A DNA stretch of 64,000 nt from an uncultured Bacteroidales bacterium (GCA_963732115.1 CAVSYN010000001.1:9341-73340), one strand, 5' to 3'. Positions 43,248-58,144 are shown, numbered from the stretch's first letter. The notes: generated from the letters alone by a model not told the origin. A program made the numbers and translations.

Positions 43248-44414
43248 TCAACTCAAATCAAACGATCTTAAGTCTATTTTACTTCTATCTGAGACACCTA
43301 ATCCTAAGGCGGTTGCCATTACCAGAAATGTCAGGGATTCCGGAGTCGCTTTTTTCTGGATACCCTCTGCAATTCTTTTTTCAGCAATGATATCATAACC
43401 TATCCTGTCCATTGCAACCGGATCGGACGAAACAAGCAGTGAATTATAATTGCAGATAAACTGTGCATTAGCTCCCGGTCCGCCATTAAAGCAGCCACGA
43501 AGACCATCGCTGATATTCAGTACTACCTTGTCACGTAAAGGAGCAAAGGCACAAACCTCTGCGCATGTATCATTCCAGAGGCTGGTATGAAGCCTTCCTG
43601 TATTAGATACGGACCCGAAAGCAAGATTTTTCATTGCGTTGGTAATAGATCCTCCCGCATTTTTAAGTATAGGAATATTTATGATCTTATCAACTTCCCG
43701 GGTTATAATCTTTGTAAAGTAGGAGAATTTTCCGGTATTGATCATGTAAGGCATAGTTTCGGCATCATATTCACCTTCAACATCTGCCCAGTAGTACCAT
43801 TCCCTGTCAATGTTTCTTTCCCCGTAAAGTTTTCCCTCCTTATCTACAAATGAACCATTTTCATCCTGCTGTTCGGTTCCTGCGATCCTGATCCCGGGAT
43901 AGTTTTGATAAGTAAAGCCCACATCTTTAAGTTCCATCTCTCTCCTGTCCCAAATAACAATATTATTTTTGTCTATTCCGCTATCTGTTAATTGTTTAAC
44001 AACAGATTTTACGACAGCGTGACTTGTTGACAAAAGCTTGCCGGCAACCGGATTTACCTTAAGACCTATTCTTTCGCCCGGATTAACGAACGTTCTCCAG
44101 GCTTTCTTAAGGTTATTCTGGCCAGTCAGTTCAAGCATTGCTTTCTCAAGCATAATATATGCGATAGATTCAACAGGTTCATCATTTGCAACTGCATCCT
44201 TATGCTTTATAAGTACGACTCTGCCAGGGTATTTTCCAGGCATGGAATCCGGTTTTCTCGGTACCTTAAGTGCATCACTTATACTTGTTGCAGGTTTGGA
44301 TGACGACTGCTGAGCAAAGGATGCCTTAGAAACCAGCGGACTTACAGCCATTGCGGCTCCTCCGGCTCCGATTATAGTGAAAAATTTTCTGCGATTTAAA
44401 GATTTGCTTTTCAT
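43248..44414 (-). CDS. Tat-exported DUF362 domain protein
   Basis: Tat motif NRRKFF, IGLKVNP, INIPILKN, MKNLAFG, SDPVAMD. Confidence 0.85.
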   Translation of the reverse strand: MKSKSLNRRKFFTIIGAGGAAMAVSPLVSKASFAQQSSSKPATSISDALKVPRKPDSMPGKYPGRVVLIKHKDAVANDEPVESIAYIMLEKAMLELTGQNNLKKAWRTFVNPGERIGLKVNPVAGKLLSTSHAVVKSVVKQLTDSGIDKNNIVIWDRREMELKDVGFTYQNYPGIRIAGTEQQDENGSFVDKEGKLYGERNIDREWYYWADVEGEYDAETMPYMINTGKFSYFTKIITREVDKIINIPILKNAGGSITNAMKNLAFGSVSNTGRLHTSLWNDTCAEVCAFAPLRDKVVLNISDGLRGCFNGGPGANAQFICNYNSLLVSSDPVAMDRIGYDIIAEKRIAEGIQKKATPESLTFLVMATALGLGVSDRSKIDLRSFDLS

Positions 44415-44504
44415 AAAATAAAGCGCTTATTTTAAAAATTACAGTTTCAAATATAGCCAATAAACATAAAGTAATTGATCCATTGTTACATGTAACATGA
44501 CATT

Positions 44505-44535
44505 TTTGCATAATCGGAATAGTTGATTATTTTTG
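44505..44535 (+). promoter_or_regulatory. Putative Bacteroidota promoter for the tRNA-Pro/GIY-YIG locus
   Basis: TTTG at 44505-44508 and TATTTTTG at 44528-44535, about 45 nt before the first tRNA-like copy. Confidence 0.55.
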
Positions 44536-44578
44536 CAGAGGCTTAATACCGCCTTCACTAAGGCTTAGGCAGTCAGAG

Positions 44579-44676
44579 CGGGGTGTGGCGCAGTTGGTCC
44601 CGTCACGCATGGCGTGACGAGGATCCTCGAAAAATCTGAAAATTAAAGATTTTCGATTTTTCGGGACTAGCGCTTG
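44579..44676 (+). pseudogene. Degenerate tRNA-Pro 5' copy 1, D-loop interrupted by a 69-bp palindromic insertion
   Basis: CGGGGTGTGGCGCAGTTGG (tRNA nt 1-19), then the insertion 44598-44666, then CTAGCGC (nt 20-26). Confidence 0.88.
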
Positions 44677-44688
44677 TGACGACAGATT

Positions 44689-45027
44689 ATGTTCTTTGTT
44701 TATATATTAGAGACTCAGGAGAGTAAAAGATTTTATATTGGACAGACTAATAACCTTGTACAGAGAATAAAAAGACATAATCAAGGTAGAAATCTATCCA
44801 CAAGAGCCTTTATTCCATGGAGTCTTAAATGGTGGAAAGAATATCAAACTAGAACTGAGGCTGTTAGGGTTGAAAAGACTCTTAAAGGGATAAAAAAAAG
44901 AACTGGATTGGAAAAGTTTGTCCGTGAAATTGGTTTTTCGGGGTGTGGTCACGCAAAGCGTGATAAACTCCGTTGGCTAGCGCATCACGCAGGGCGTGAG
45001 AGCCGTCTGTTCGAGATGAAAAAATAG
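44689..45027 (+). CDS. Small GIY-YIG endonuclease (YhbQ/UPF0213, SLX1-like)
   Basis: FVYIL...FYIGQT, conserved R in QRIKRHN, ST..FIPW, catalytic E in EAVRVEKTLK. Confidence 0.92.
   Translation: MFFVYILETQESKRFYIGQTNNLVQRIKRHNQGRNLSTRAFIPWSLKWWKEYQTRTEAVRVEKTLKGIKKRTGLEKFVREIGFSGCGHAKRDKLRWLAHHAGRESRLFEMKK
44939..45015 (+). pseudogene. Degenerate tRNA-Pro copy 2 with two palindrome substitutions
   Basis: CGGGGTGTGG-[TCACGCAAAGCGTGA]-TAAACTCC-GTTGGCTAGCGCA-[TCACGCAGGGCGTGA]-GAGCC-GTCTGTTCGAG, compared with the intact tRNA at 45040. Confidence 0.88.
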
Positions 45028-45039
45028 CCAGGAATTATT

Positions 45040-45113
45040 CGGGGTGTGGCGCAGTTGGCTAGCGCACTTGCATGGGGTGCAAGGGGTCGTCTGTTCGAGT
45101 CAGATCACCCCGA
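45040..45113 (+). tRNA. tRNA-Pro (GGG)
   Basis: Full cloverleaf: acceptor CGGGGTG/CACCCCG, D stem GCGC/GCGC, anticodon arm CTTGC-ATGGGGT-GCAAG, T arm GTCTG-TTCGAGT-CAGAT. Confidence 0.97.
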
Positions 45114-45127
45114 CAGTTTTAAAAATT

Positions 45128-45162
45128 AGACCTTGTAACTCAAATATTTACAAGGTCTTTTT
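45128..45162 (+). terminator. Terminator hairpin after tRNA-Pro
   Basis: AGACCTTGTAA-CTCAAATAT-TTACAAGGTCT-TTTTT. Confidence 0.75.
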
Positions 45163-45490
45163 TATTGGTGGTATAAAATTCAGTAGAAAAATAACTGCGT
45201 ATATTCCAGATAAAAATATAATATATGGGTTCCAGACCCACCTTTTTTGGCTAAAATCATATTTAACCCATCCTGTTTTTGTGATCCTTTTAAGTCCTTT
45301 TCAGGGAAATAAATTAACAGACCAAAATGTTTGTCTTTTACTTTGTCCTGATATATTGACTGATATTTATTAAAATTTTTTATCATGAAATTATAAAGCA
45401 ACATGAATTTCGTAAACATATTTTTCCAAGAATTTAACACTTTATTCAGGGCTGTAAGAAGGACAGGGATGTACAAAACTAAAAAAGAAA

Positions 45491-48400
45491 TTAAGGGTTT
45501 GAGCTAAATTCAATTAATTTCAGTGAATCATTATTGATCGCGAACAGAAATGCATCTTTTCCTGAAGCCAATTTAATCTTCCTGATAGCTTTCACCTCAC
45601 CTTTAATAAGAAGTGTGCTTTCTGCCGGTGGAACAACCTTTATTTCACCTTTGGCATCTGAAACCAATACCAGCCCTATACTTGCATCGTTCCTGGGTGT
45701 CTCTACTTCCGAACCATATAAATTGCCGGCAACAATAAAAGCAGTACTATTATCTTTATATTTTATCTCAACCATATCATTGATGGAAGAAAATTGCGCC
45801 CAATTTGGGAGTTTATGCATTGTGAATTCCCCCTTCCCTTTATTTTCAATCCAATAATTAGCAAAAGTATTTGCCTTGTAATGCAAAGAAGCCTTCAACA
45901 TTTGTTCACCATATATCTCTTGCAGTGTTGCACTTGCAAATTCTTCATAACCTTTGTATCTGAGTTTCATGACCGGAATCTGCCTTACAGTAGCATCAAA
46001 ACCATTGACCGGATAGTTTTTCCCATTCTCCCCATAACTAAGCACGATATCTAATTTGCCATCTACATCAAAATCATTGGAGTATATTTCAAATGGTTCT
46101 TTTTCGCTGGTTTTGTACTTATAATTTAATCCAAGATTACCTGCCAGGTAATCGTTATCGCCATCCTTATCAATATCGATGCTGTTAATACTATACCACC
46201 AGCCGACAGTTTCTTTAAATCCTAATTTATCAGAAACATCAATAAATCTATTTGAAGAATTTTCAAAAAAGTGAATTTTCATCCATTCACCCACAATTAT
46301 CAGATCAACATCGCCATCACTGTCAAAGTCATCCCAGATAGCATCTGTGACAAGTCCCAGATTTAATAGTTCCGGGGCTATTTCTTCTGTAACATTTTCA
46401 AATTTCAGATCAGCTCCTTTTTCCCCATTATTTTTCAAAATATAACTGTTTGCAGGGAGCGGGTATTTTCCGGGAACAATACGTCCTCCTACAAATAAAT
46501 CGAGATGGCCATCTTTGTCATAATCAGCTGCTTTTACACATTTCCCGCTTTTATTTAAGTCAGCAGGCAGACAATTTTTACATTTAACAAAACCCTTTTC
46601 AGTATTTAAATACAACCTGTCCTGGTAATACTCCCCTTTTTCCTTGTTATCGTTCCCTCCGCTAACCACATATAAATCCAATCTTCCGTCATTGTCGGCA
46701 TCAAACAGTAAGGCTCCTGTATCTTCATAAAGCGAATCGCTTATCCAGGGTCCTGGTATTTCCTTAAATGTACCTTTTTCTGTTTGCAAATACATAGCTC
46801 CCTTAAAACCTTTGCCATTGCCAACAAAAAAATCTTCAAGTCCATCTCCATTAATGTCCCCGACAGCTAAACCAGGGCCCATCTGTGAATTCTTATACGG
46901 AAGTAACTCTTCATATTCAAAATCATCGTATTTATCTTCGTGATGAACAAATGTTATTCCTGCCTGTTTCGTGATGTCTTTAAAATTTAATTTTTGAATA
47001 GATTTTTCTTCAGCAGCAACTGCATCGGTGTATTTTAATTTTAGTGTCTGGTCAGCTCTGATGTTTTTTAGTACTTGTTGTTTCTTATCGGGCCATATAA
47101 CAGTTAATTCATCAATAGTGTCTTTTTGAGCTAAACCAAAATGAATAGTGGTTGGAACACTCGACTGATAACCCCTTGTAAGTGTCAGTTCCTGTTTTTG
47201 TGTAATATCTCCGGTTTTAACGGTAACGATGCTGCCTATACCAAATGGATTGGTAACCGATCCGGCAAGATCAACTTTCAAATAGTGATAGTTGTCAGGA
47301 ACAACTTTGTTTTCGTAAATACCAGCTACAGCATTTATATTGTTAATTATAACATCTAAATCACCGTCATTATCCAGATCGCTGTAAGCCACTCCATTTG
47401 AAAATCCAGGTTCACCAAAACCCCAGCTATCTGCTTTGTTGGTAAATGTGAAATCGCCGTTGTTTTTGAATACATAATTTTTTACGGGAGTGCTGGGAAA
47501 TAGTTCCGGACGGTATTCCTTTCTAACCTTGAAATAAATATTACTCCTTGAATCCTCCAAAACGTCTCTGTCATTGATATCTTTTAGTACACCGTTGGTT
47601 ACAAAGAGATCCTTATTCCCGTCATTATCCAAATCCATAAAAAGGCCTCCCCAGCTCCAGTCGGTATAAGCAACACCTGCAAACAGTGAAATATTGCTGT
47701 AAACAGGGATATTATTAAAAATGCCGTTGTTTAGCTGCAAAGAGTTTTGCATGTACTGATAATGAAAACCATAATCAAGGCTGAGGTTAAATGTCTCACG
47801 ACTCATAGGACTGACATTCACCATTCTGCGATAATGATCTTCAGGAGTCATATCTATTTGATATAAATCAATGAGTCCGTCATTGTTAATATCGGCAGCA
47901 TCAAGTCCCATTCCGAAAATGGATGTTTGAAATGTAGCCTCTCTCACAATATTTTTAAAAGTTCCGTCTCCATTGTTTAAATAAAAGTAATCGGGAACAT
48001 TGAAATCATTTGATATGTATAAATCTTTCCAGCCATCATTATTAAAATCCATTGCAACCACTCCTATTGACATACCAAAATTTCGTACACCGGCTTCATC
48101 TGTTACATCAGTAAAAGTACCATTACCGTTATTTCTATATAAGTGGCCCGATTCTTCGAATTTATTTTCAATCATTTTATCATGATAAAATTTGGCACCC
48201 ATACTTACCGGTACAATCGGATAATTGGCAACATATAAATCCAAAAGTCCATCATTGTTATAATCAAAAAAAGTAGCCTGAACAGAAGAACTCTTGTCAT
48301 TGATGCCATACTTTGCAGCACATTCTGTAAAAGTATTATCATGGTTATTAATAAAAAGTAAATTGCCTGATAGGTTGATATTTAGCAGAAACACAAACAT

Positions 48401-48780
48401 AAATATCCAGCCAGCCGTCATTATTCACATCGGCCATAGTTGAACCTGTAAACCATTGATGATTACCTGTTATACCTGCTTTTTCAGATATATCTTCAAA
48501 TTTCATATTACCCTTGTTGAGGTAGAGTTTATTTGAAACAAGGTTCCCGGTAAAAAAAATATCATCCAGTCCATCATTATTGATATCACCCACAGAAACG
48601 CCGCCACCCATATACATATATGGAAAAATCGTATAATTCAAGGTGTCGTTTTCTGTCACTTTATTAATGAAATTAATACCTGACCTGGAAGGTGATATTT
48701 TTTTAAAGGTTTCCTTATTAAAGTTTGCTGCATGAAAAAAGCAATACGCATATTAAACACATGCAAAAGCTGATTCTCAT
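45491..48780 (-). CDS. FG-GAP/VCBS repeat, ASPIC/UnbV domain protein (frameshifted)
   Basis: [17 protein letters not shown], repeated DxDNDGxLD motifs, DWSWGG, RGYQSS. Confidence 0.88.
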
Positions 48781-48812
48781 TTTAAGAAATCCTTGTATAA
48801 AGATTAATTTAT

Positions 48813-51800
48813 TCATTCAAACTTAAATATTTGTAGCTTCTCGTTATTATTTCCAACTAAAACAGCTTTGTCTTTATCAGCATTATTCAGGTGAATTAAT
48901 GATAGTGCTTTAACTTCTTTGGGAACAAAAAATCCTGATAGTCTCGAGGGTATAACTTCAAAACTGCCCTTACCATCACCTTTCAGAAACACACCAACTC
49001 CCCCGTCATTTCTTGGTGTAACAATTTCCACATCAAAAAGATTGCCGGCTGCCAAAATATCCAAATTACCATCCTTATCAAAATCATCAATAATCATATC
49101 ATTTATAGAAGATAATTGGGCTTCATTGGGTAATTTATGAATTTTAAACTTACCATTCCCGATATTTTCAAGATAACAGCTGGCAAAGGTCTCAGCCTGA
49201 AGATGCAGAGATTCATTTAATACTTTTTTTGTATAAATATCTGAAACTGTAGCTTCAGCAAAGCTCTTATAAGTAGGGAATTTCAGTGCCAGTCCCGGGA
49301 TTCTGGTCGACAAAACATTTTCTGCTTCTTAACGGAAATTGTTTACTCATCCTGAAAATAGCTCAATACAATATCTGAATTTCCGTTATTGTTAAAATCT
49401 CCAGCATATACATCAAAGGTTTTATCGCTACTTGCTTTATATCTGAAATTTAAACCAAGATTACCTGCTACCAGATCAATATCGCCATCTTTATCAAAAT
49501 CAGCACCTTCAATACTAAACCACCATCCTCTTGTTCCTTCAATAATGGTTTTCTCGAATTTTCCATTATTATTTTTATATATAGCAAACAGGCATCCATT
49601 CACCTGCTACAACCAGATCGGTCCATTGGTCATTATCAATATCAGCACAAAATGCTGAAGTAACCATGCCGGCTTCTAAAAGATCAGGCGCAACACTGTC
49701 TGTAACATCCTCAAATTTTACAATTCCATTTTCAGATTTGTTTTCCAGAATATAGCTTCTGGCAGGAAATGGATATTTGTCGCGGCACCTGTCTTCCTCC
49801 AACAAATAAATCAAGATCCCCATCTTTATCGAAATCTATTGCTTTAACACATGATCCGTTCGACATTATTGCAGGCAATGAATTTGGGCTTTTGGAAAAA
49901 TTACCTTTACCATCATTTATATAAAGACGGTCCGTATATCTTTTTGAGTCTTTAGGGAATTCATATCCTCCGCTTGCAACATATAAATCAAGATCTCCAT
50001 CATTATCAGCATCAAAAAACAAAGTTCCGGTATCTTCAAACAGACTATCGTTCTCCCATGGCCCTTCCTTAATTTTGAAAGTTCCATTTTTATTTTGGAT
50101 AAACAATCTACCCGGACTTTTAGATGCATTTCCTATATAAAAATCTTCAAGTTGATCGTTGTTTACATCACCTACAGTAATATCAGGTCCTGGATTTGAC
50201 ATTTTATGAGGTAATAAAACCTGATCTTTGAAATCATTATATATGTTTTCTTTATGAATAAATTCAAGTCCGATCGTATCATGTTATTTCTTTAAATAAC
50301 TTTTCAGCTATCACTTTTTGCTGAACAACAGATGTTGCATCAGAATGCTTTAAAGTCAGTTTTTGATTTGCTTTGATATTCTTTATGTTTTGAACTTTTC
50401 CATCATTCCATTTTACACAAAGTGAATCTACAATTTCATGGTTAGCCAGGCCAAAGTACAATATGGGTTCAACAGATGATTCATAACCCCTTGATAAGGT
50501 CAGTTCTGCCATTTGCATTTTTCCTTCAGTCCAGATGGTTACAACAGAACCAATTCCCATTTTATTAGCAGGAGTTCCTTCAAATGCAACTTTAAGATAA
50601 TTCCCCAACTTGTTTTCACTTGCATTATTTCTATATATAAATGCCTCCCCGTCAATATTATTAACAATAAGTTCCAGATCGCCGTCATTATCCAGATCAG
50701 CGTAAGCCACACCGTTTGAATAGCTTTTCTCCTTTATTCCCCATTCTTTATTGTACTTGGAAAACGTAAGATCACCATTATTTTTATATATATAATTTAC
50801 AAGTGGTTCGAAGGGCATATTTTTCACCTGTTTTAACATTTCGACATTACTCAAGCCTTTATTAAAATTTGAAGATTCTGATATTTTATTGAAATAATCA
50901 ATATTATTTATATCCCTGCGGATACCAGTTGTTATATATAAATCTTTCCATCCGTCAAGGTCATAATCTGCAAACAAAGCAGCCCAACTCCAGTCTGTTG
51001 AAGTAACACCGGCGATCCAGGCGGCATTGCTAAAAAATGGAAGGCCATTGTCCATAATACCCCTGTTCAGTTGTAAAGTACTATATCTGTACTGATGATG
51101 TAAACCTTCATTCACCATCTCCTCAAAATCCTCCGAATTCATAGTTGACATATTCTCTTTTGCTCTTTTATTATCTTCAGGAGCCATGTCAATTTGCATG
51201 ATGTCGAGTAATCCATCGTTATTATAATCTGCAATATCGGCACCCATACCATAAAAAGAAGTTTGTCCGAGAACTTCGCCAGCTTTGTCAGAAAATGTTC
51301 CGTCACCATTGTTAAAGTAAAAGTAATCGGGGCATGTAAAATCGTTCGAAATATAAATATCCTTATATCCGTCCTGGTTAAAATCGCTCACAGTTGCACT
51401 TAGTGTTAATCCAAATGATAATAAACCGCTCTCTTTGGTAACATTGCGTAAAAGTACCATCACCGTTGTTTCGATATAAATGACCAGAATCAGTCCACTT
51501 TACATTTCTCATCATTTGTTTATAAACATAAGGAGTAGCTTTAAAGTTTGTAATAGGATAATTTGCAACATACAAATCCAGGTCGCCATCGTTATCATAA
51601 TCGAAAAAAGTACTCTGCGTACTCATCCCCGCATCGTTAATACCATATTTCTCAGCCTCCTCCATGAATACAGGAATACCATCTTTATTGATCCCATGGT
51701 TTACAAATAATAAATTTTCGCGATTAGTAGATAATCCGGAAACACTCACATAAATATCAAGCAGTCCATCATTGTTGATGTCACATATGGTTGAACCCAG

Positions 51801-52178
51801 CATCCAGCGATGGTCGCCACCTGTCCCTGAAATTTCAGTAATGTCTTTAAATTCCAGGTTTCCCATATTAAGATACAAGCGGTTGCTGACCATATTGCCG
51901 GTAAAATAGATATCTGTCAGACCATCATTATTAAAGTCTCCAACGGATACCCCACCGCCCATATACATGTAGGAATACAGGAAATAGTTAAAAGTATCGG
52001 TCTCTGTAAGCGTGTTCTGAAAGGTAATGTTTGTTTTTCCTGAAGAGAGTTTCTGGAAAACAGGACCTTCATGGTTTGTTTTCTCATGCTTGCAGGAATA
52101 AAAGATACAAAGTATAATTATAAACAAAACTACAGGGTAAAGCCTTTTACGGTATTCAGGTTTTAAAAGGTTAATCAT
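48813..52178 (-). CDS. FG-GAP/VCBS repeat, ASPIC/UnbV domain lipoprotein (multiple frameshifts)
   Basis: FYSC lipobox, [30 protein letters not shown]; paralog of the gene at 45491. Confidence 0.88.
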
Positions 52179-52226
52179 AAGGGCTAAATTGGTAAGAATG
52201 AAGGATAAATGTACTTCAAATAACTC

Positions 52227-52263
52227 AAAAAAGAAATGGTCCTGTTTTGCAGGACCATTTCTT
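52227..52263 (-). terminator. Intrinsic terminator after susD
   Basis: AAGAAATGGTCCTG-TTTTG-CAGGACCATTTCTT with an A-run at 52227. Confidence 0.8.
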
Positions 52264-52285
52264 AAATCATAATAGTTTCAATCAA

Positions 52286-53915
52286 TTAATAACCTGGATT
52301 CTGATCTGTCTGTTCAATGTTTGGGTTAACATCAATTTCCTTCTGAGGAATAGGCCAGAGAAGATTTTTGGGTGCACTGAAAACCAAAGCAGCCTGGTCG
52401 GCTTTAGGACAACTGGGTTTAACTTCGGCAATAAAAGCAGCAAGTCTGTCCCATCTTACAAGGTCGGGGAAACGGACATTGTTCACCGCATAATTCAACC
52501 TTGCGTTCATGTTCCAAAGCTTTCATAAATCCAGCCAATGTACCCACAGGATAAATAGCATTCATAGCAGCTGTACCATATAATGGCATATTCACATCGG
52601 CCCTTGCCCTTACCTCGTTCATATAGCCTACAGCTGTAGTGAGGCTTCCACCTGATTTGTTGGCTTCTGCTTCTGCCTTCATTAATATTACGTCGGCATA
52701 CCTGATCACCTTCATGTTGATTCCTGATTCATTTCCTGCAACAGCTCCTTCAGTGGCAGCTTTATAGTAGTTCTGGTATTTTCTCCAACCTCTTCTTTGA
52801 TAATGATCAATCATGACACCAGCTTGAATTTTTTATGATCGCAGAATCAATTTTCATGGTCAGGGTATTGTTGTTATACAAATCGCCATTCTGGTAGATG
52901 CAGTAACCGCGTCTTGGATCGGTTTTTACACCATTGTCAGCAGCAGTTTCGAATTCATCCCAAAGATCCTGTGAAGGGAATACGTTGAACCAGTTTAAGA
53001 CAACCATATTCCTGGCCTCTGAAACAAGCTTCATTCAAACCTTCGTCTGTTCTGTCGGAATTCCATTGACTGGAATAACCAGCTGCGATGTTCCACTGGA
53101 CTTCGAAGAGGGATTCCGGACCATTTTCGGTTTCTTCCATAAAGTTGTTAAAATAAACAGGTTCCAGAGAGTAACCGGTAATATGATTAAAAGCATCAAG
53201 AGCCCCCTGATAATTTTTCTGGAATAAACGTGCTTTGCCTAACAGAGCCCAGGCAGCGCCTGAAGTAGCCCTTCCAGCTTGTTCATCAGCTTTGGAAAAA
53301 CATTTGGCTGCTGCATCATATACAGTCGGCTTCTATTTGTGCCCAAATCTGTGCTTTAGGAGTTCTGGGAAGACCTTCATTCTCTGCAGGATCAACTCCG
53401 AGATACAGGGGAACATCACCAAATTTATCAACCAGGAAGAAGTAATATAAAGCCCGCAGGAATTTTGCCTCACCAATATACTTGTTTCTCATGACATCGG
53501 ACAATAAACCAGTGGGGATATTTTTCTTAATTACTTCCTCATTGTTGATAACAAAATTGGCTTTATTAATGCCTCTGTAGCAACTATTCCAGTAAGCTTC
53601 AATCAAACCATGTGTTGCATCGAATGTGAAATTCAGCCACTGGCGTTTATCAGCTTCCTGCTGTGGCATACATGTATTTTCATGACTCATATTGTCATTA
53701 CCATACCACATATGACGGTTGTAAATACTGGTTGTTTGCAAACTTCCGTAAACAGCATTTACAGCTGACTGCACCTGAGCCGCAGTTGTAAAATAAGTGT
53801 CAGGTGAAAGTTGGTTAGGATTCGTAAGTTCTAACTTATCCGCATTACACGAAAAGAGTAGAACCATTGCACTGAAAACTAGTGCCCGCATGAAATATGT
53901 TTTAAGTCTTTTCAT
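52286..53915 (-). CDS. SusD/RagB family lipoprotein (multiple frameshifts)
   Basis: LFSC lipobox, GEAKFLRALYYF..V..FGDVP, IRYADVILMKAEA, HERKVELCGE, LWPIPQKEIDVNPN. Confidence 0.9.
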
Positions 53916-53936
53916 AATATAATTCTGTTTTAAAGT

Positions 53937-56900
53937 TTAGAAGGTAACTTGAATACCAGCAATAACTGATTTTGGTATAGGATAATTACCTACATCAATT
54001 CCATTGGCATAGTTTTGAGATGTTGTTTGAGGAGCACCAATTTGTCCCAATGAGGTTCCACTGGAAGTGTATCTGCCAACCTCAGGATCTAAACCAGAGT
54101 ATTTAGTTATGCAAATCATGTTTTGTGCACTTACATAAATTCTAAGTTTAGTGAGTTTGTCCTTCAAAAGATTTTCAGGTATTGTGTACCCCAGCGTTAT
54201 GTTTTTCAATTTGGTATAGGCACCGTCTTCGACGAAACGACTGGATGCCTGGACATTGGAAGCAACTGTACCGGCTCTTGGGATGGTGTTTGAAGGATTG
54301 GTTGGAGTCCATCTGTCTAACACCTTAACATCGGAATTAAATAACCTGTCCATACCTACCAGATCAAAAAGGTTGGTATTGTAAAGTTTATTACCGTATA
54401 CTCCGCTTATAAACAAGTTCAGATCAAAGCCTTTGTATGAAGCATTGAGGTCCAAACCAAGAGTCATCTTGGGGAACGGGTTTCCTATATTGGTTCTGTC
54501 GGTTGCAGTCAATTTTGCCATCACCATTGGTATCTTTAATACGGAAATCTCCTGCAGTTGCAGAATTGAGTGCGTGTTCCGTACCGCCCATATAGGTTGC
54601 AGCTTCTTCAGCTGACTGGAAGATACCGTCGAACTCCCATCCGTAGAAGAAGAAAGCAGGTTGTCCAACCTGACATCTGTTAAGGTCTTCACCTTCAAAA
54701 GTAAATCCGGAAATATAAGTAGCACCACCCAGGGATTTAACTTCATTTTTGAAAGTACCAAGATTTAAATTGGCTGACCATTGAAAATCGCCTTCAAAAT
54801 CGTTGTATCCTAACTGCAATTCAAAACCTTTTGTATCCATAGAGCCTGCATTCTTGCTGATTGTACCCCTGAAGTCACCTGTAGACAGTGGCAGAGGTAC
54901 TTGCATCAGAAGATCACTACTCGAGTTCATATAATATTCAGCAGACAACGTAAATTTGTTTTTAAACAAGCCCAAATCCAATCCAATGTTGGTCATGGTT
55001 GTTTCCTCCCATTTTAAATCGGGATTTGAGGCACCTCCCGGGGTTGTTCCAACAACAGCTACATTATTAATAACATAATACATGTTTGAGGTTAGGGATG
55101 AAGAATAGGCATAATCTGAAATCTTGTCATTACCGGCTTTACCCCAGCTTCCTCTGAGTTTTAAGTTGCTGATAGAAGCAACATCGCTTAAGAAAGCTTC
55201 TTTGGCAATATTCCAACCCAAAGATAATGAAGGGAAAGTACCCCATCTCTTGTTTTTACCAAACCTTGACGAAGCATCTTTTCTTATTGAAGCCGAGAAT
55301 AAGTACTTCCCATCATAGTTATAGTTTAATCTTCCAAGGTAACTGATTCTGTAATAATCAATTGATCCTGAGCTTAATGAAGCGTCGGTGTTACTCAATT
55401 CTTCAACCTGGTTAGTAATATTATTGTGTGAACTGGCATTCTCAACAGTTGAGTGAACAGCGCTGTATTCAGTCAATGCCAACAACTCAAAATTATGTTT
55501 TTCAGCAAGTGTTAAGTCATAAGTTAAGTTGTTGGTAAACAGGAATGAATTATAGGTTGCCTGGTTTTTAATAATATTTGCAAAAGTTGATTGGTGAGTA
55601 TTGCCACCCAGGTTATCATCATTGAATGAAGGGTAGAATTGGTTGTCAAGTACTCTCTCATCCTGGAGACCAAGATTAGTTCTGAATTTCAGGCCTTTAA
55701 TAAGTTCCAGTTCACCATAGATATTACCAAGAATGTCCAGTGTGTTCTGTTTGCGACTGTTCAGCTCCATGATTCTGACGGGGTTTTCAGCATCCTGTCC
55801 GTCAATGGCGCTGGTCGGACCCTGGAATCCGCCTAGATTGTCTGGATTGTACACCGGCAGGTAAGGGGCCATTTTAATGGCATGCTCCAACAGAGAACGT
55901 CCGCCATTATCAGCCAAAGGATCCTGCAAGGAGTATGATAAGCTGAGGTTCTCACCAATTTTCAGCCTGCCCTTTTTAAAATCACTATTGGCTCTGAAGT
56001 TGTATCTTTCAAGACCAGTTTTGATAACAATACCTCGTTGATTCAAATAACCGGCTGACAATCTGAAAGTGCTGTTATCATTACCACCGGAAAGGGAAAG
56101 GTCATAGTTTTGCATAGGACCATTCTGGTATATCTCATCCTGCCAATCGGTTTCAGCGGCAGTAGTACGGGCAGCATATATAGGATTTGAATAAACTGCA
56201 GGTGTTGTAAATGCTCCACCTGTAGCATATTCTTTATATTGGGCACTGTTCATCAAATCATATCTTGCAGTGGAATATTGAACTCCGTAATAGCCTTCCA
56301 AATTAACCACAACATTACCGGCTTTACCTTTCTTGGTAGTAACCATAATAACACCATTTGATCCCAGTGAACCATATATAGCAGCTGTGGAAGCGTCTTT
56401 TAATACTTCAATGGATTCAATGTCTGAAGGACTGATGTTACTAATAGTGGTTGAAACAACACCGTCAACAACAAACAAAGGATTGGCATCGTTAACAGTA
56501 CTTATACCTCTAACCCTGATTGTAGATGCAAAACCCGGAGCACCATTGCTGATAACCGTCAAACCTGCTGCACGTCCCTGCAAAGCCTGGTCAAGACCTG
56601 CAGAAGGCAGAGCAGTAAGTTTATCAGATGTAACTGATGAAATAGCACCGGTTACTTCGAGCCCTTTTCTGGGTACCATAACCAACAACCACAACTTCAT
56701 TAAGAGGTGTAGATTCAATCTGAAGAGTTACATTGATAACAGAACTGGTCCCAATTGGAATTTCCTGGTCAGTGTACCCAATGAAGCTGATAACAAGGGT
56801 ATTTCCAGTCGAGGGAACAGTAATAGTATACTTACCAAGGCCGTCTGTTATTGCCCCTATTTGTGTTCCTTTCACAACAACATTTGCACCAGGAACCGGT

Positions 56901-57010
56901 TGTTGATCTTTATCAACCACAGTTCCGGTTACTGTTCTCTGGGCATAGACACCAGCAGTACCTGCCACAAAGAATAAAAGCAACATAAATACTTTAAGTA
57001 ATTTTTTCAT
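53937..57010 (-). CDS. SusC/RagA TonB-dependent transporter (frameshifted)
   Basis: PGANVVVKGT, LKDASTAAIYGS.GSNGVIMVTTKKG, NPDLKWEET, YSGLDPEV, GIQVTF. Confidence 0.93.
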
Positions 57011-57384
57011 AGATTGATTATAATTAGGTTATATAATTCGAATTATAAAGAAAAACCAATTATTGAATCTAAAAAATTTTGAGAGTTCAGGTTAAATTCA
57101 GTTTGTTAATTCCAATTTGGATTAAACAATTTTTTATTTAATAAAGCGAATATATAATAATTTTCAAAATAATTGTGCAGATGCGTAACTATTTTCGCAA
57201 AAATCATAAATTAGTTTAAAATTTATAAAGAATAGCAAGATTGTTTAAAGTGCAGATTATTATAAATAGAATTGAAAGATAAATTAATCTTTTGGTCATT
57301 CGATTCATTGCAGACCTTTATCGTAAGTTTATAATTAAAAAAATATGGAATGGTTTATAAATACCCGATAATATCAAGGCAGGC

Positions 57385-57437
57385 AGCGCATCACGCAGGG
57401 CGTGAAGGTCGTCACGCTTTGCGTGATCACCCCGACA
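57385..57437 (+). pseudogene. Degenerate tRNA-Pro 3' copy 3 (att-like), anticodon and T arms replaced by palindromes
   Basis: AGCGCA-[TCACGCAGGGCGTGA]-AGGTC-G-[TCACGCTTTGCGTGA]-T-CACCCCGACA. Confidence 0.85.
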
Positions 57438-57440
57438 CGA

Positions 57441-57481
57441 TAAGATAAGGGTTTGTGATAATGCAAACCCTTTCTTATTTT
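57441..57481 (+). terminator. Hairpin/terminator after the att-like tRNA copy
   Basis: TAAGATAAGGGTTTG-TGATAATG-CAAACCCTTTCTTA-TTTT. Confidence 0.65.
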
Positions 57482-57748
57482 GTTAATTGAAGTGCAATTG
57501 GAGTGCGAAAAATCCATTTCCCAGAGTGTTGAGGCAAAAATATAATTGTGGTAAACAGATGTAGAAAGCCCCCAGAGCTGATTTCCGAAGGCTATTGATC
57601 AGTATCTGCTTCTCGATAATCTATCCGGCAGGGAAATCCTAGAGTGGTCAGGATTTCCGGGTTTTGCAATAAAATCTGTTACTCCCCAGAGATCACCTAA
57701 TATTTATTTATCTTTATCTTATCCGATAAATTACTTTATTTGAAGGGT

Positions 57749-58144
57749 ATGAAAAAGTTACTTCATTTTAACACAATGCTCTGGCAGACGGTTGTAATAG
57801 CCGTTCTGGCGAATATCCATATTGCATCAGGCCAGACCGGGAAAAAACATCAATTTCCAATACCTGAAGACATCAATAAGATTTTTCAGACCTCATGTAT
57901 GCCATGCCATGGAAGTAATGGTGGAAGATTACCCAAATCAAGATTAAACTTCTCAAGATGGGCAGGATATGGTCCTGCAAAAGAAGTGGAGAAAGCATCT
58001 TTGATCTGCTCGGCTCTCAGAAAAGGTGCAATGCCGCCAAGGTCAGCCAGGAAATCAAAACCTGAACTTGTCCCAACAAAAGAGCAGATCGATTTAATTT
58101 GCAAATGGGCTGAATCAATTAAATCAGAGAAGGGGGAAAAATAA
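57749..58144 (+). CDS. Haem-binding domain c-type cytochrome
   Basis: Signal peptide, CMPCH (CxxCH), LNFSRW, GAMPP. Confidence 0.8.
   Translation: MKKLLHFNTMLWQTVVIAVLANIHIASGQTGKKHQFPIPEDINKIFQTSCMPCHGSNGGRLPKSRLNFSRWAGYGPAKEVEKASLICSALRKGAMPPRSARKSKPELVPTKEQIDLICKWAESIKSEKGEK

Follow-up and report, generated by a model that had tools for sequence, protein, structure and literature searches.

How does a piece of a tRNA gene, lying 12.3 kb downstream of the intact gene and in direct orientation to it, come to carry a palindrome at the place of each of two arms? The case is found at 57385-57437 in a stretch of 64,000 nucleotides from the genome of an uncultured Bacteroidales bacterium; this whole stretch is called the window below, and its genome G000. 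Read directly, the segment is AGCGCA / TCACGCAGGGCGTGA / AGGTCG / TCACGCTTTGCGTGA / TCACCCCGACA. We refer to it as fragment C, and its parts and immediate surroundings are as follows.

57340..57384, + strand: possible remnant (weak) of a D-type nuclease gene's 3' end, without an open frame (alignment of GATAATATCA.. with ..GATAATAATATCA.. of the relatives)
57385..57437, + strand: fragment C, a partial tRNA-Pro(GGG) copy, tRNA positions about 21-76 (direct read; orthologues in relatives)
57385-57390, + strand: fragment C, 3' strand of the D stem and A26
57391-57405, + strand: fragment C, palindrome TCACGCAGGGCGTGA replacing the anticodon arm
57406-57411, + strand: fragment C, variable loop and G49
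57412-57426, + strand: fragment C, palindrome TCACGCTTTGCGTGA replacing the inner T arm
57427-57437, + strand: fragment C, 3' strand of the acceptor and ACA
57447..57481, + strand: terminator-like hairpin (AAGGGTTTG..CAAACCCTT and a T run) 3' of fragment C, also present 3' of the post-nuclease fragments in G117 and G048

The three linkers of fragment C differ from the intact tRNA-Pro(GGG) at 1 of 23 bases, whereas 10 of the 15 bases of the inner T arm are changed, with TC..GA retained (Fisher p = 5.9e-5). The first-pass annotation had described an arm-for-arm palindrome substitution and had excluded drift as its cause, and these numbers bear out both statements. The anticodon arm, 17 nt long in its native form, is represented by a 15-nt palindrome identical to the copy at 44985-44999. 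Reverse-complemented, the T-arm palindrome matches the palindrome at 44949-44963 exactly, a relation that the first-pass annotation had missed. The region 57385-57485 folds with -27.4 kcal/mol (z -7.4), and the two hairpins of fragment C can alternatively fold into one 16-bp hairpin. ARAGORN and Rfam called no tRNA at fragment C, the substitute loops being 3 nt long and not 7-nt anticodon or T loops. Independent support came from another sample (run X3), in which a 787-nt contig covers 56855-57640 and spans the site with 16 differences and one gap over its whole length.

The intact gene lies in a neighbourhood that contains two further tRNA fragments and a nuclease gene.

44579..44673, + strand: fragment A, made up of tRNA 1-19, a structured D-loop insert of 69 nt, and CTAGCGC (fold -29.5 kcal/mol, z -7.5)
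44689..45027, + strand: U-type GIY-YIG nuclease gene, 112 aa in its present form (Pfam PF01541, E 9.9e-17, residues 1-71)
44939..45039, + strand: fragment B, a 101-nt leader unit (direct read; tandem in relatives and in three metagenome runs)
45040..45114, + strand: intact tRNA-Pro(GGG), the window's only copy with a native anticodon arm (ARAGORN; Rfam tRNA 56 bits)

A search with Rfam at E up to 1 over 44000-58000 gave the tRNA at 45040-45114 as its sole match. Fragment A, and the U-type gene that sits between fragments A and B, are additions to the first-pass annotation. The insert of fragment A (44598-44666) consists of TCCCG, a palindrome with an ATG loop (44603-44617), CGAGGATCCTCG, an AT hairpin and CGGGA. 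Fragment B is composed, in this order, of tRNA 1-10, the palindrome 44949-44963 followed by TAAACTCC, tRNA 14-26, the palindrome 44985-44999, GAGCC, half a T arm and an AT-rich spacer. Contigs of the peat metagenome runs X1, X2 and X3 join 45037 to 44937, that is back by 101, so tandem repetition of fragment B does occur in nature, and an array of it may have been collapsed in the assembly. In relatives without fragment B the U-type frame comprises 90 aa and is closed by the D-loop TAG of the real tRNA; in the window, fragment B shifts the frame, which continues to 45027.

Where the U-type stop does lie in the D loop of the real tRNA (compare window 44930-45062; L049, L039 and L035), processing of the tRNA 5' end would remove the last codons of the message together with its stop, and we infer that this would be a built-in brake on nuclease expression. 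The approximately 70 bases behind the tRNA (45115-45190), which include a terminator-like hairpin, are present at four places in G085, and this stretch is therefore a small repeat in its own right. Contigs of the RNA run X13 cover the tRNA (an 82-nt contig) and scattered parts of the interval between the tRNA and fragment C, and none of them reaches the fragments.

One stem is common to all five palindromes of the locus. Sites matching TCACGC-N3-GCGTGA with at most one mismatch number five in the window against 0.07 expected, a count of five being reached in 0 of 100 shuffles. The same five are the only ones in the 4.27-Mb genome, and every one lies inside a tRNA-Pro fragment.

The arrangement recurs in the related genomes, which are titled uncultured Bacteroidales or Rikenellaceae. 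Of 121 genomes from the same genus, 113 yielded the tRNA-Pro region, and many of these genomes carry a U-type nuclease gene, a D-type gene or both. Many of the tRNA-Pro matches in this search lie at contig ends. The U-type gene (90 aa) is placed upstream of the tRNA, and its frame enters the real tRNA to end at the TAG of the D loop. The D-type gene (82 aa) follows 3' of the tRNA and its terminator and stops at the same D-loop TAG, here within a partial tRNA copy. The D-type gene is followed by the same series of parts as in fragment C: tRNA 14-26, a hairpin where the anticodon arm would be, GGGTCG, then either a T arm or another hairpin, and finally the 3' strand of the acceptor and a terminator. 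In G117, G048, G003, G023, G064 and G099, orthologues of fragment C immediately follow a D-type GIY-YIG gene and are no more than about 350 bp from the tRNA, and fragment C with its terminator matches the post-nuclease fragments of G117 and G048 at 78-79% (blastn). A remnant of the nuclease gene beside fragment C was sought by tblastn with no match at E < 0.39, and the remnant call at 57340..57384 is therefore weak. The AGG-loop palindrome occupies the same position in the leader units of the relatives and behind their nuclease, which supports shared ancestry, one of the two alternatives raised earlier, for the identical anticodon substitutes at 44985 and 57391.

Both kinds of unit form tandem arrays. 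The array behind the tRNA in G003 comprises 6.1 units of 343 bp that are 98% identical, and those of G060, G107 and G076 contain at least four complete gene copies each, the loci ending within another copy. Leader units without a gene, 79-105 nt long and similar to fragment B, are arrayed upstream of the tRNA in G064, G117, G060, G099, G107, G076 and G115.

The regularity of the replacement was assessed in a census of 72 tRNA-Pro loci from 72 genomes (30 best matches to a fragment B query, 3 obtained after a palindrome search and 40 from the match list, with one duplicate dropped). The anticodon position was scored between a D-arm anchor (..GCGCA) and a variable-loop anchor (GGGTC..), copies without anchors being uncounted. 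It was occupied by 69 native arms (at most one per locus), 97 perfect hairpins and 22 other sequences, of which 16 are TCCCGAC../TCACGACC.. hairpins of L038, L037 and one more locus, clipped by the anchor, and the remaining 6 are imperfect or unrelated fillers. Among the detectable partial copies of the 72 loci none had a native anticodon arm. At least five stems that differ between lineages occur at this position (TCACGC, TGGCGC, TGGAGC, TTCCGC and TCCCGAC), all of them fully paired.

The T arm is less uniform, with 13 hairpins in 7 genomes against 39 native-like arms in 52 partial copies. All 13 hairpins lie at G/TC..GA/T, between G49 and T65. This is the count of arm-exact replacements among the tRNA-Pro fragments of relatives which the first-pass annotation had proposed; at the anticodon position every partial copy found in the 72 loci has its hairpin between ..GCGCA and GGGTC... 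As the T arm is native in many partial copies (39/52), a hairpin there is not needed for persistence, and the T-arm hairpin is a variable and probably old feature. Between the T arms of G000 and G117 there is one compensatory pair (TCACGC/GCGTGA versus TCCCGC/GCGGGA). In G099, two near-identical units have as their sole difference a native T arm in one and a hairpin in the other, which is compatible with a recent swap or with recombination with the real tRNA. Loops at the anticodon position start with A (tRNA strand) in 9 of 11 distinct loops on TCACGC stems, and those at the T position start with a pyrimidine in 7 of 7 distinct loops; the two hairpins may accordingly be an inverted pair. A GIY-YIG gene was present in 13 of 21 loci with hairpin-bearing partial copies versus 4 of 51 without, a purely descriptive comparison, since the genomes are related to one another and likeness to fragment B had guided the choice of the first 30 loci.

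To look outside the genus, one genome per species was scanned with an alignment of seven D-type sequences; this gave 51 loci, and ARAGORN was run on 50 of these. A tRNA on the same strand lies beside the nuclease in 29 of 39 loci from several phyla (L103-L142, L120 unscanned): 17 Pro-GGG, 2 Pro-CGG, 2 Ala, 1 Val, 3 Ser, 1 Glu, 2 Ile and 1 Asp. For the last 11 loci, mostly of Sphingomonadales, ARAGORN gave no same-strand tRNA beside the nuclease. The partial tRNA copies at distant nuclease loci bear GC-rich hairpins too. In L126 (T loop), L127 (anticodon loop) and L129 the hairpin is situated within the loop and the native stem is partly kept, which makes arm-exact replacement a property of the Pro-GGG lineage and not of the whole family. 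The claim that replacement respects arm boundaries therefore stands for that lineage (72 loci, and the T-arm hairpins of 7 genomes at G/TC..GA/T) and does not extend to these distant loci; the refuting outcome named in the first-pass annotation, replacements that ignore stem boundaries in a larger sample, is thereby partly realised. The stem TC[AC]CGC..GCG[GT]GA was found in 15 of 17 tRNA-Pro(GGG) loci versus 1 of 12 loci with other tRNAs, and the exact 15-mer TCACGCTTTGCGTGA recurs in the Flavobacteriales isolate Gangjinia marincola, there within the D loop of a partial tRNA-Pro copy. This distribution indicates that the hairpin sequence travels with the nuclease lineage. The stem TCCCGC/GCGGGA also occurs in a cassette of Patescibacteria.

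The comparison of loci shows the hairpins, judged as sequences, to be conserved as paired structures with lineage-specific sequence, inherited with the cassette and not made in place. The earlier proposal of a hairpin-directed replacement acting at this site was not borne out; the hairpins are inherited parts of a nuclease cassette.

The long interval between the tRNA and fragment C contains frames for FG-GAP/ASPIC, SusD-like and TonB-receptor (SusC/SusD-like) pieces, and no recombinase domain was found in its nine longest frames. Between 45491 and 57010, many short frames take the place of intact FG-GAP/ASPIC and SusC/SusD-like genes. Contigs from other samples are without single bases at 49580, 49781, 50281, 52476, 52822, 53000/53002, 53320 and 54508, and the frame breaks of the interval may be single-base insertion errors of the assembly or strain-level decay. 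Synteny searches for the origin of the 12.3-kb gap placed the far flank and the FG-GAP gene on other contigs in the relatives. No fragment C was seen in the fragmented assembly of G085, which is the nearest relative, with 98% identity in its FG-GAP gene. In G064, the stretch between the tRNA and fragment C is located elsewhere.

A partial 3' tRNA copy in direct orientation downstream of an intact gene is also a mark of integrative islands in tRNA genes, and fragment C could be viewed as the far attachment-site repeat of a 12.4-kb integrase island in the tRNA-Pro gene, a view to which the distance of 12.3 kb and the separate location of the intervening stretch in G064 would lend themselves. We regard it as very improbable. 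The nine longest frames of the interval are free of recombinases (the shorter ones are unscanned), the repeat is split by two palindromes into 6, 6 and 11 bases, partial 5' copies lie upstream of the tRNA as well, in which the locus differs from such islands, and the orthologues are about 350 bp from the tRNA, behind a nuclease gene. Hardly credible at all is that the arms are native to a foreign tRNA or that the pattern is an assembly artefact. A stem of 6 bp closed by a loop of 3 nt is unfit as the anticodon arm of a foreign tRNA-Pro, which the first-pass annotation had considered, and equally as a T arm; ARAGORN and Rfam call nothing at the fragment, the structures recur in many independent assemblies and the contig from another sample spans the site. 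Island, foreign arm and artefact were all rejected.

Copies of tRNA ends are found at other places of the window's genome. A search for tRNA genes lying close to a copy of their own 5' or 3' end flagged twelve of its 46, among them Leu-GAG and Leu-CAG, two neighbours that match each other. Nine flagged loci were read, and a 5' copy lies ahead of the gene in six (Arg-CCG, Ala-GGC, Ser-TGA, Leu-CAA, Ser-GCT and Leu-TAA). The stem TCCCGC/GCGGGA is contained in the 5' copies of Arg-CCG, Ser-TGA and Leu-TAA; that of Ser-GCT has a longer TCCGCC..GGCGGA hairpin, and none was read for Leu-CAA. Ser-TGA has two tandem units with the same module of a hairpin and TAAACTCC as fragment B. The copy ahead of tRNA-Ala(GGC), on contig C23, possesses a 69-nt insert of the fragment A type (TCCCG, hairpin, CGAGGATCCTCG, hairpin, CGGGA) at the same position in the D loop. 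The partial copies in G000 were located at C15:3482, C24:26198-26306, C34:151970, C34:344907 and C23:25917-26030. A half-site TCACG or CGTGA occurs in 2 of the 46 tRNAs of the genome, Val-CAC and Lys-CTT, as a sequence match with the arm position unassigned.

The wider pattern TC[AC]CGC-N3-6-GCG[GT]GA has about 45 separate scattered sites in the genome, counted from the matches listed, some of them nested in repeats with a swapped central hairpin; the sister stem TCCCGC..GCGGGA has about 40-45, counted likewise. Seven Y1 transposase genes are present, all flanked by other palindromes, the nearest being ACCCCGC TGT GCGGGGT, and a link of the palindromes to Y1 transposases found no support in these flanks.

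Several further elements were observed. A structured element (..ggctccttcgctaaaa, hairpin, ttttaacgctcggccc..) that ends in a copy of the tRNA 3' end is shared by C13:179957-180100 and C24:26399-26730, 3' of tRNA-Met and tRNA-Ser(TGA); copies of the ggctccttcgctaaaa/ttttaacgctcggccc element elsewhere have another central hairpin, TCCCGCC..GGCGGGA. At C12:19500-20100, tRNA-Gln is followed by a frame of about 115 aa, and a copy of the last 16 bases of this tRNA stands 548 nt downstream, so that tRNA and copy enclose the frame. In L011, L013, L017 and L020 (G007, G008), TCACGC-N3-GCGTGA is nested in a dispersed repeat (gtcattccgaatgcag, palindrome, cgaaatgaggaatc), the outer part of which resembles published NTS flanks and copies of which often lie at contig ends. 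In L012 and L018 (G015, G005), TCACGC-N3-GCGTGA serves as one hairpin in an element that resembles a cobalamin riboswitch, and this occurrence is probably chance or unrelated.

The nucleases and their hairpins can be compared with the Ssn system as described in the main text of Chenal et al. 2025 (PMC11893778). Ssn nucleases are single-domain GIY-YIG proteins of about 94 aa (range about 80-100 aa). Their binding to a hairpin repeat (NTS/SRM) is confined to its single-stranded DNA form, they cleave a few bases upstream of the hairpin, and their genes are flanked by the repeat, 20-50 nt long, in the manner of insertion sequences. They are defined by the CDD class cd10448 (GIY-YIG_unchar_3); in SsnA of N. 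meningitidis, Y6, Y17 and E64 were mutated (PMC11893778). Their role outside Neisseria is left open there, and the word 'tRNA' is absent from that main text.

Like Ssn, the proteins found here consist of a single GIY-YIG domain (82-90 aa) with the catalytic Tyr, Tyr and Glu conserved; Y5, Y16, R26, H30, N31 and E62 are invariant in 12 U- and D-type sequences. Hairpins flank the U-type gene on both sides (44603, 44949, 44985) and follow directly 3' of the D-type gene, the frame enters the repeat, and nuclease and hairpin appear to co-vary. The inner stem TCCCGC/GCGGGA of the NTS, as published in that main text, is the stem of the G117 T arm, of the tRNA-Ser, -Arg and -Leu copies in this genome and of the Patescibacteria cassette. 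By hhalign, the nucleases match GIY-YIG genes that lie between inverted hairpin repeats in Sphingomonadales with 99.2% probability and 42% identity. An NCBIfam scan of the nuclease returned only a sub-threshold match to a group I intron endonuclease; the nearest solved structures are UPF0213 proteins and SLX1, and the U- and D-type proteins may belong to the neighbouring UPF0213/SLX1 clade. The published degenerate SRM pattern matched nowhere in the window and in none of 51 related loci; its 10 matches in the genome are at about the background level, which is 2 per shuffled Mb. It is a narrow test that misses the Sphingomonadales repeats too. Unlike those of Ssn, the hairpins here are built into partial tRNA copies at arm positions, adjoin an intact tRNA and stand in tandem arrays, and TCACGC-N3-GCGTGA has 5 genomic copies, not hundreds, with about 40-45 sites for the sister stem.

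SegB of phages T4/T6 carries a DNA-binding domain in its C-terminal tail. It is described as a free-standing GIY-YIG homing endonuclease in a tRNA gene cluster (PMC13096335, PMC2330249). It cleaves within tRNA genes, where it recognises a T-loop-like motif, and the segment with the tRNA and the nuclease gene is amplified in tandem as a result; it acts on double-stranded DNA, and truncation of the C-terminus abolishes its toxicity (PMC13096335). In both systems a nuclease adjoins tRNA genes and the segment forms tandem arrays, of which the nuclease found here may be the cause. In contrast to SegB, our proteins are the nuclease domain alone (82-90 aa), without a C-terminal DNA-binding domain, and whereas SegB is a phage gene without hairpin-substituted tRNA copies, the arrays here are chromosomal, extend across species and have partly diverged.

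Short GC-rich intergenic palindromes, often nested and handled as single-stranded hairpins, are also known from REP/BIME elements with their Y1 (RAYT, IS200/IS605-type) transposases and from the Rickettsia palindromic elements. The palindromes described here differ in accompanying a GIY-YIG gene and tRNA fragments, and the Y1 genes of the genome are flanked by other ones. REP-like repeats are discussed in the main text of PMC11893778 as well. Our literature search returned no paper on GIY-YIG/Ssn cassettes with hairpin-substituted partial tRNA copies; the supplements of PMC11893778, which lay outside its scope, may list Bacteroidota homologues or adjoining tRNA genes. Single-domain GIY-YIG nucleases of the Ssn type with hairpin repeats are already known; of the tRNA-linked, hairpin-substituted form of the cassette we found no published description.

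The reading that we favour, and hold to be reasonably probable, is that fragment C represents the decayed right end of a selfish tRNA-Pro(GGG) cassette, that its hairpins were inherited and that the nuclease is Ssn-like and docks on the palindromes. Counting against this reading are the distance of 12.3 kb from the tRNA, the failure of tblastn to detect a nuclease remnant beside fragment C, the native T arms of 39 of 52 copies, the low copy number of TCACGC-N3-GCGTGA, the absence of SRM-pattern matches in the window and the UPF0213 and SLX1 structures as nearest neighbours. In relatives the intact cassette comprises the tRNA, a terminator, the 82-aa GIY-YIG gene, a partial tRNA copy with hairpins for arms and a second terminator. 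By analogy with Ssn, the palindromes would be the single-stranded-DNA docking sites of the nuclease, which would dock on the hairpin repeat and cut a few bases upstream. The cuts would strike DNA of the tRNA gene that is single-stranded in replication or transcription, and repair by copying or by unequal recombination would generate duplicated tRNA pieces and tandem arrays. In the copy studied here, the nuclease gene would have been lost, leaving a relic 12.3 kb from the tRNA. One possible route to the replacement of an arm, suggested by the distant cases, would be the insertion of a hairpin into the loop, followed by loss of the old stem. A bolder version of this scheme, which we consider rather unlikely, would make the hairpin-substituted tRNAs the working ends of a new mobile element: an Ssn-like nuclease would dock, cut the single-stranded tRNA gene, be copied in and rebuild the tRNA, and the arms would be swapped because hairpins enter where the single-stranded tRNA gene itself folds.

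The hairpins could instead have been selected as RNA structures, in the 3' UTR of the nuclease mRNA or in a tRNA leader, where they would stabilise or terminate the transcript and block partial tRNA function. Their position right behind the stop codon and ahead of the terminator, the D-loop TAG in which the U- and D-type frames both end, and the compensatory changes that keep the pairing would all agree with such a role, as would two imperfect copies with a G-T pair, G-U in RNA (TCACGC AAA GTGTGA in G003 and TCACGT AAA GCGTGA in G117). Other imperfect copies (G060, G056), however, have C-T or A-G mismatches, the gene-less leader units bear hairpins too, and a stabiliser could have any sequence, whereas the 12 stem bases are unchanged between Bacteroidales and the Flavobacteriales isolate; we judge this explanation to be of low probability. 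The same low standing is given to the idea that palindromes present throughout the genome repeatedly invade dead tRNA arms by template switching or by a hairpin-specific transposase, with no part for the GIY-YIG protein. It would be in keeping with the approximately 45 scattered TC[AC]CGC-type sites, some nested with a swapped central hairpin, and with the seven Y1 transposase genes, were these not flanked by other palindromes. Copying within the locus is suggested by the stem that its five palindromes have in common, and the T-arm palindrome as the reverse complement of the D-arm palindrome and the two units of G099 that differ only in the T arm point in the same direction. The anticodon-arm hairpin is orthologous across the genus, however, so that one origin is needed and not many, and the hairpins follow the nuclease family across phyla.

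On the favoured reading, that of a decayed nuclease cassette, fragment C in the window is a relic, for which a present function is unlikely. If the nucleases are Ssn-like, tRNA genes would be a major natural home of such proteins in Bacteroidota, Patescibacteria and other phyla, and their role there would be that of a selfish element. If true, this would also explain the odd combinations of a tRNA fragment and a palindrome that are met near tRNA genes, the breaks of metagenome assemblies at tRNA loci and the origin of the leader-unit arrays, and the conserved pairs of nuclease and hairpin could provide new sequence specificities for single-strand DNA tools.
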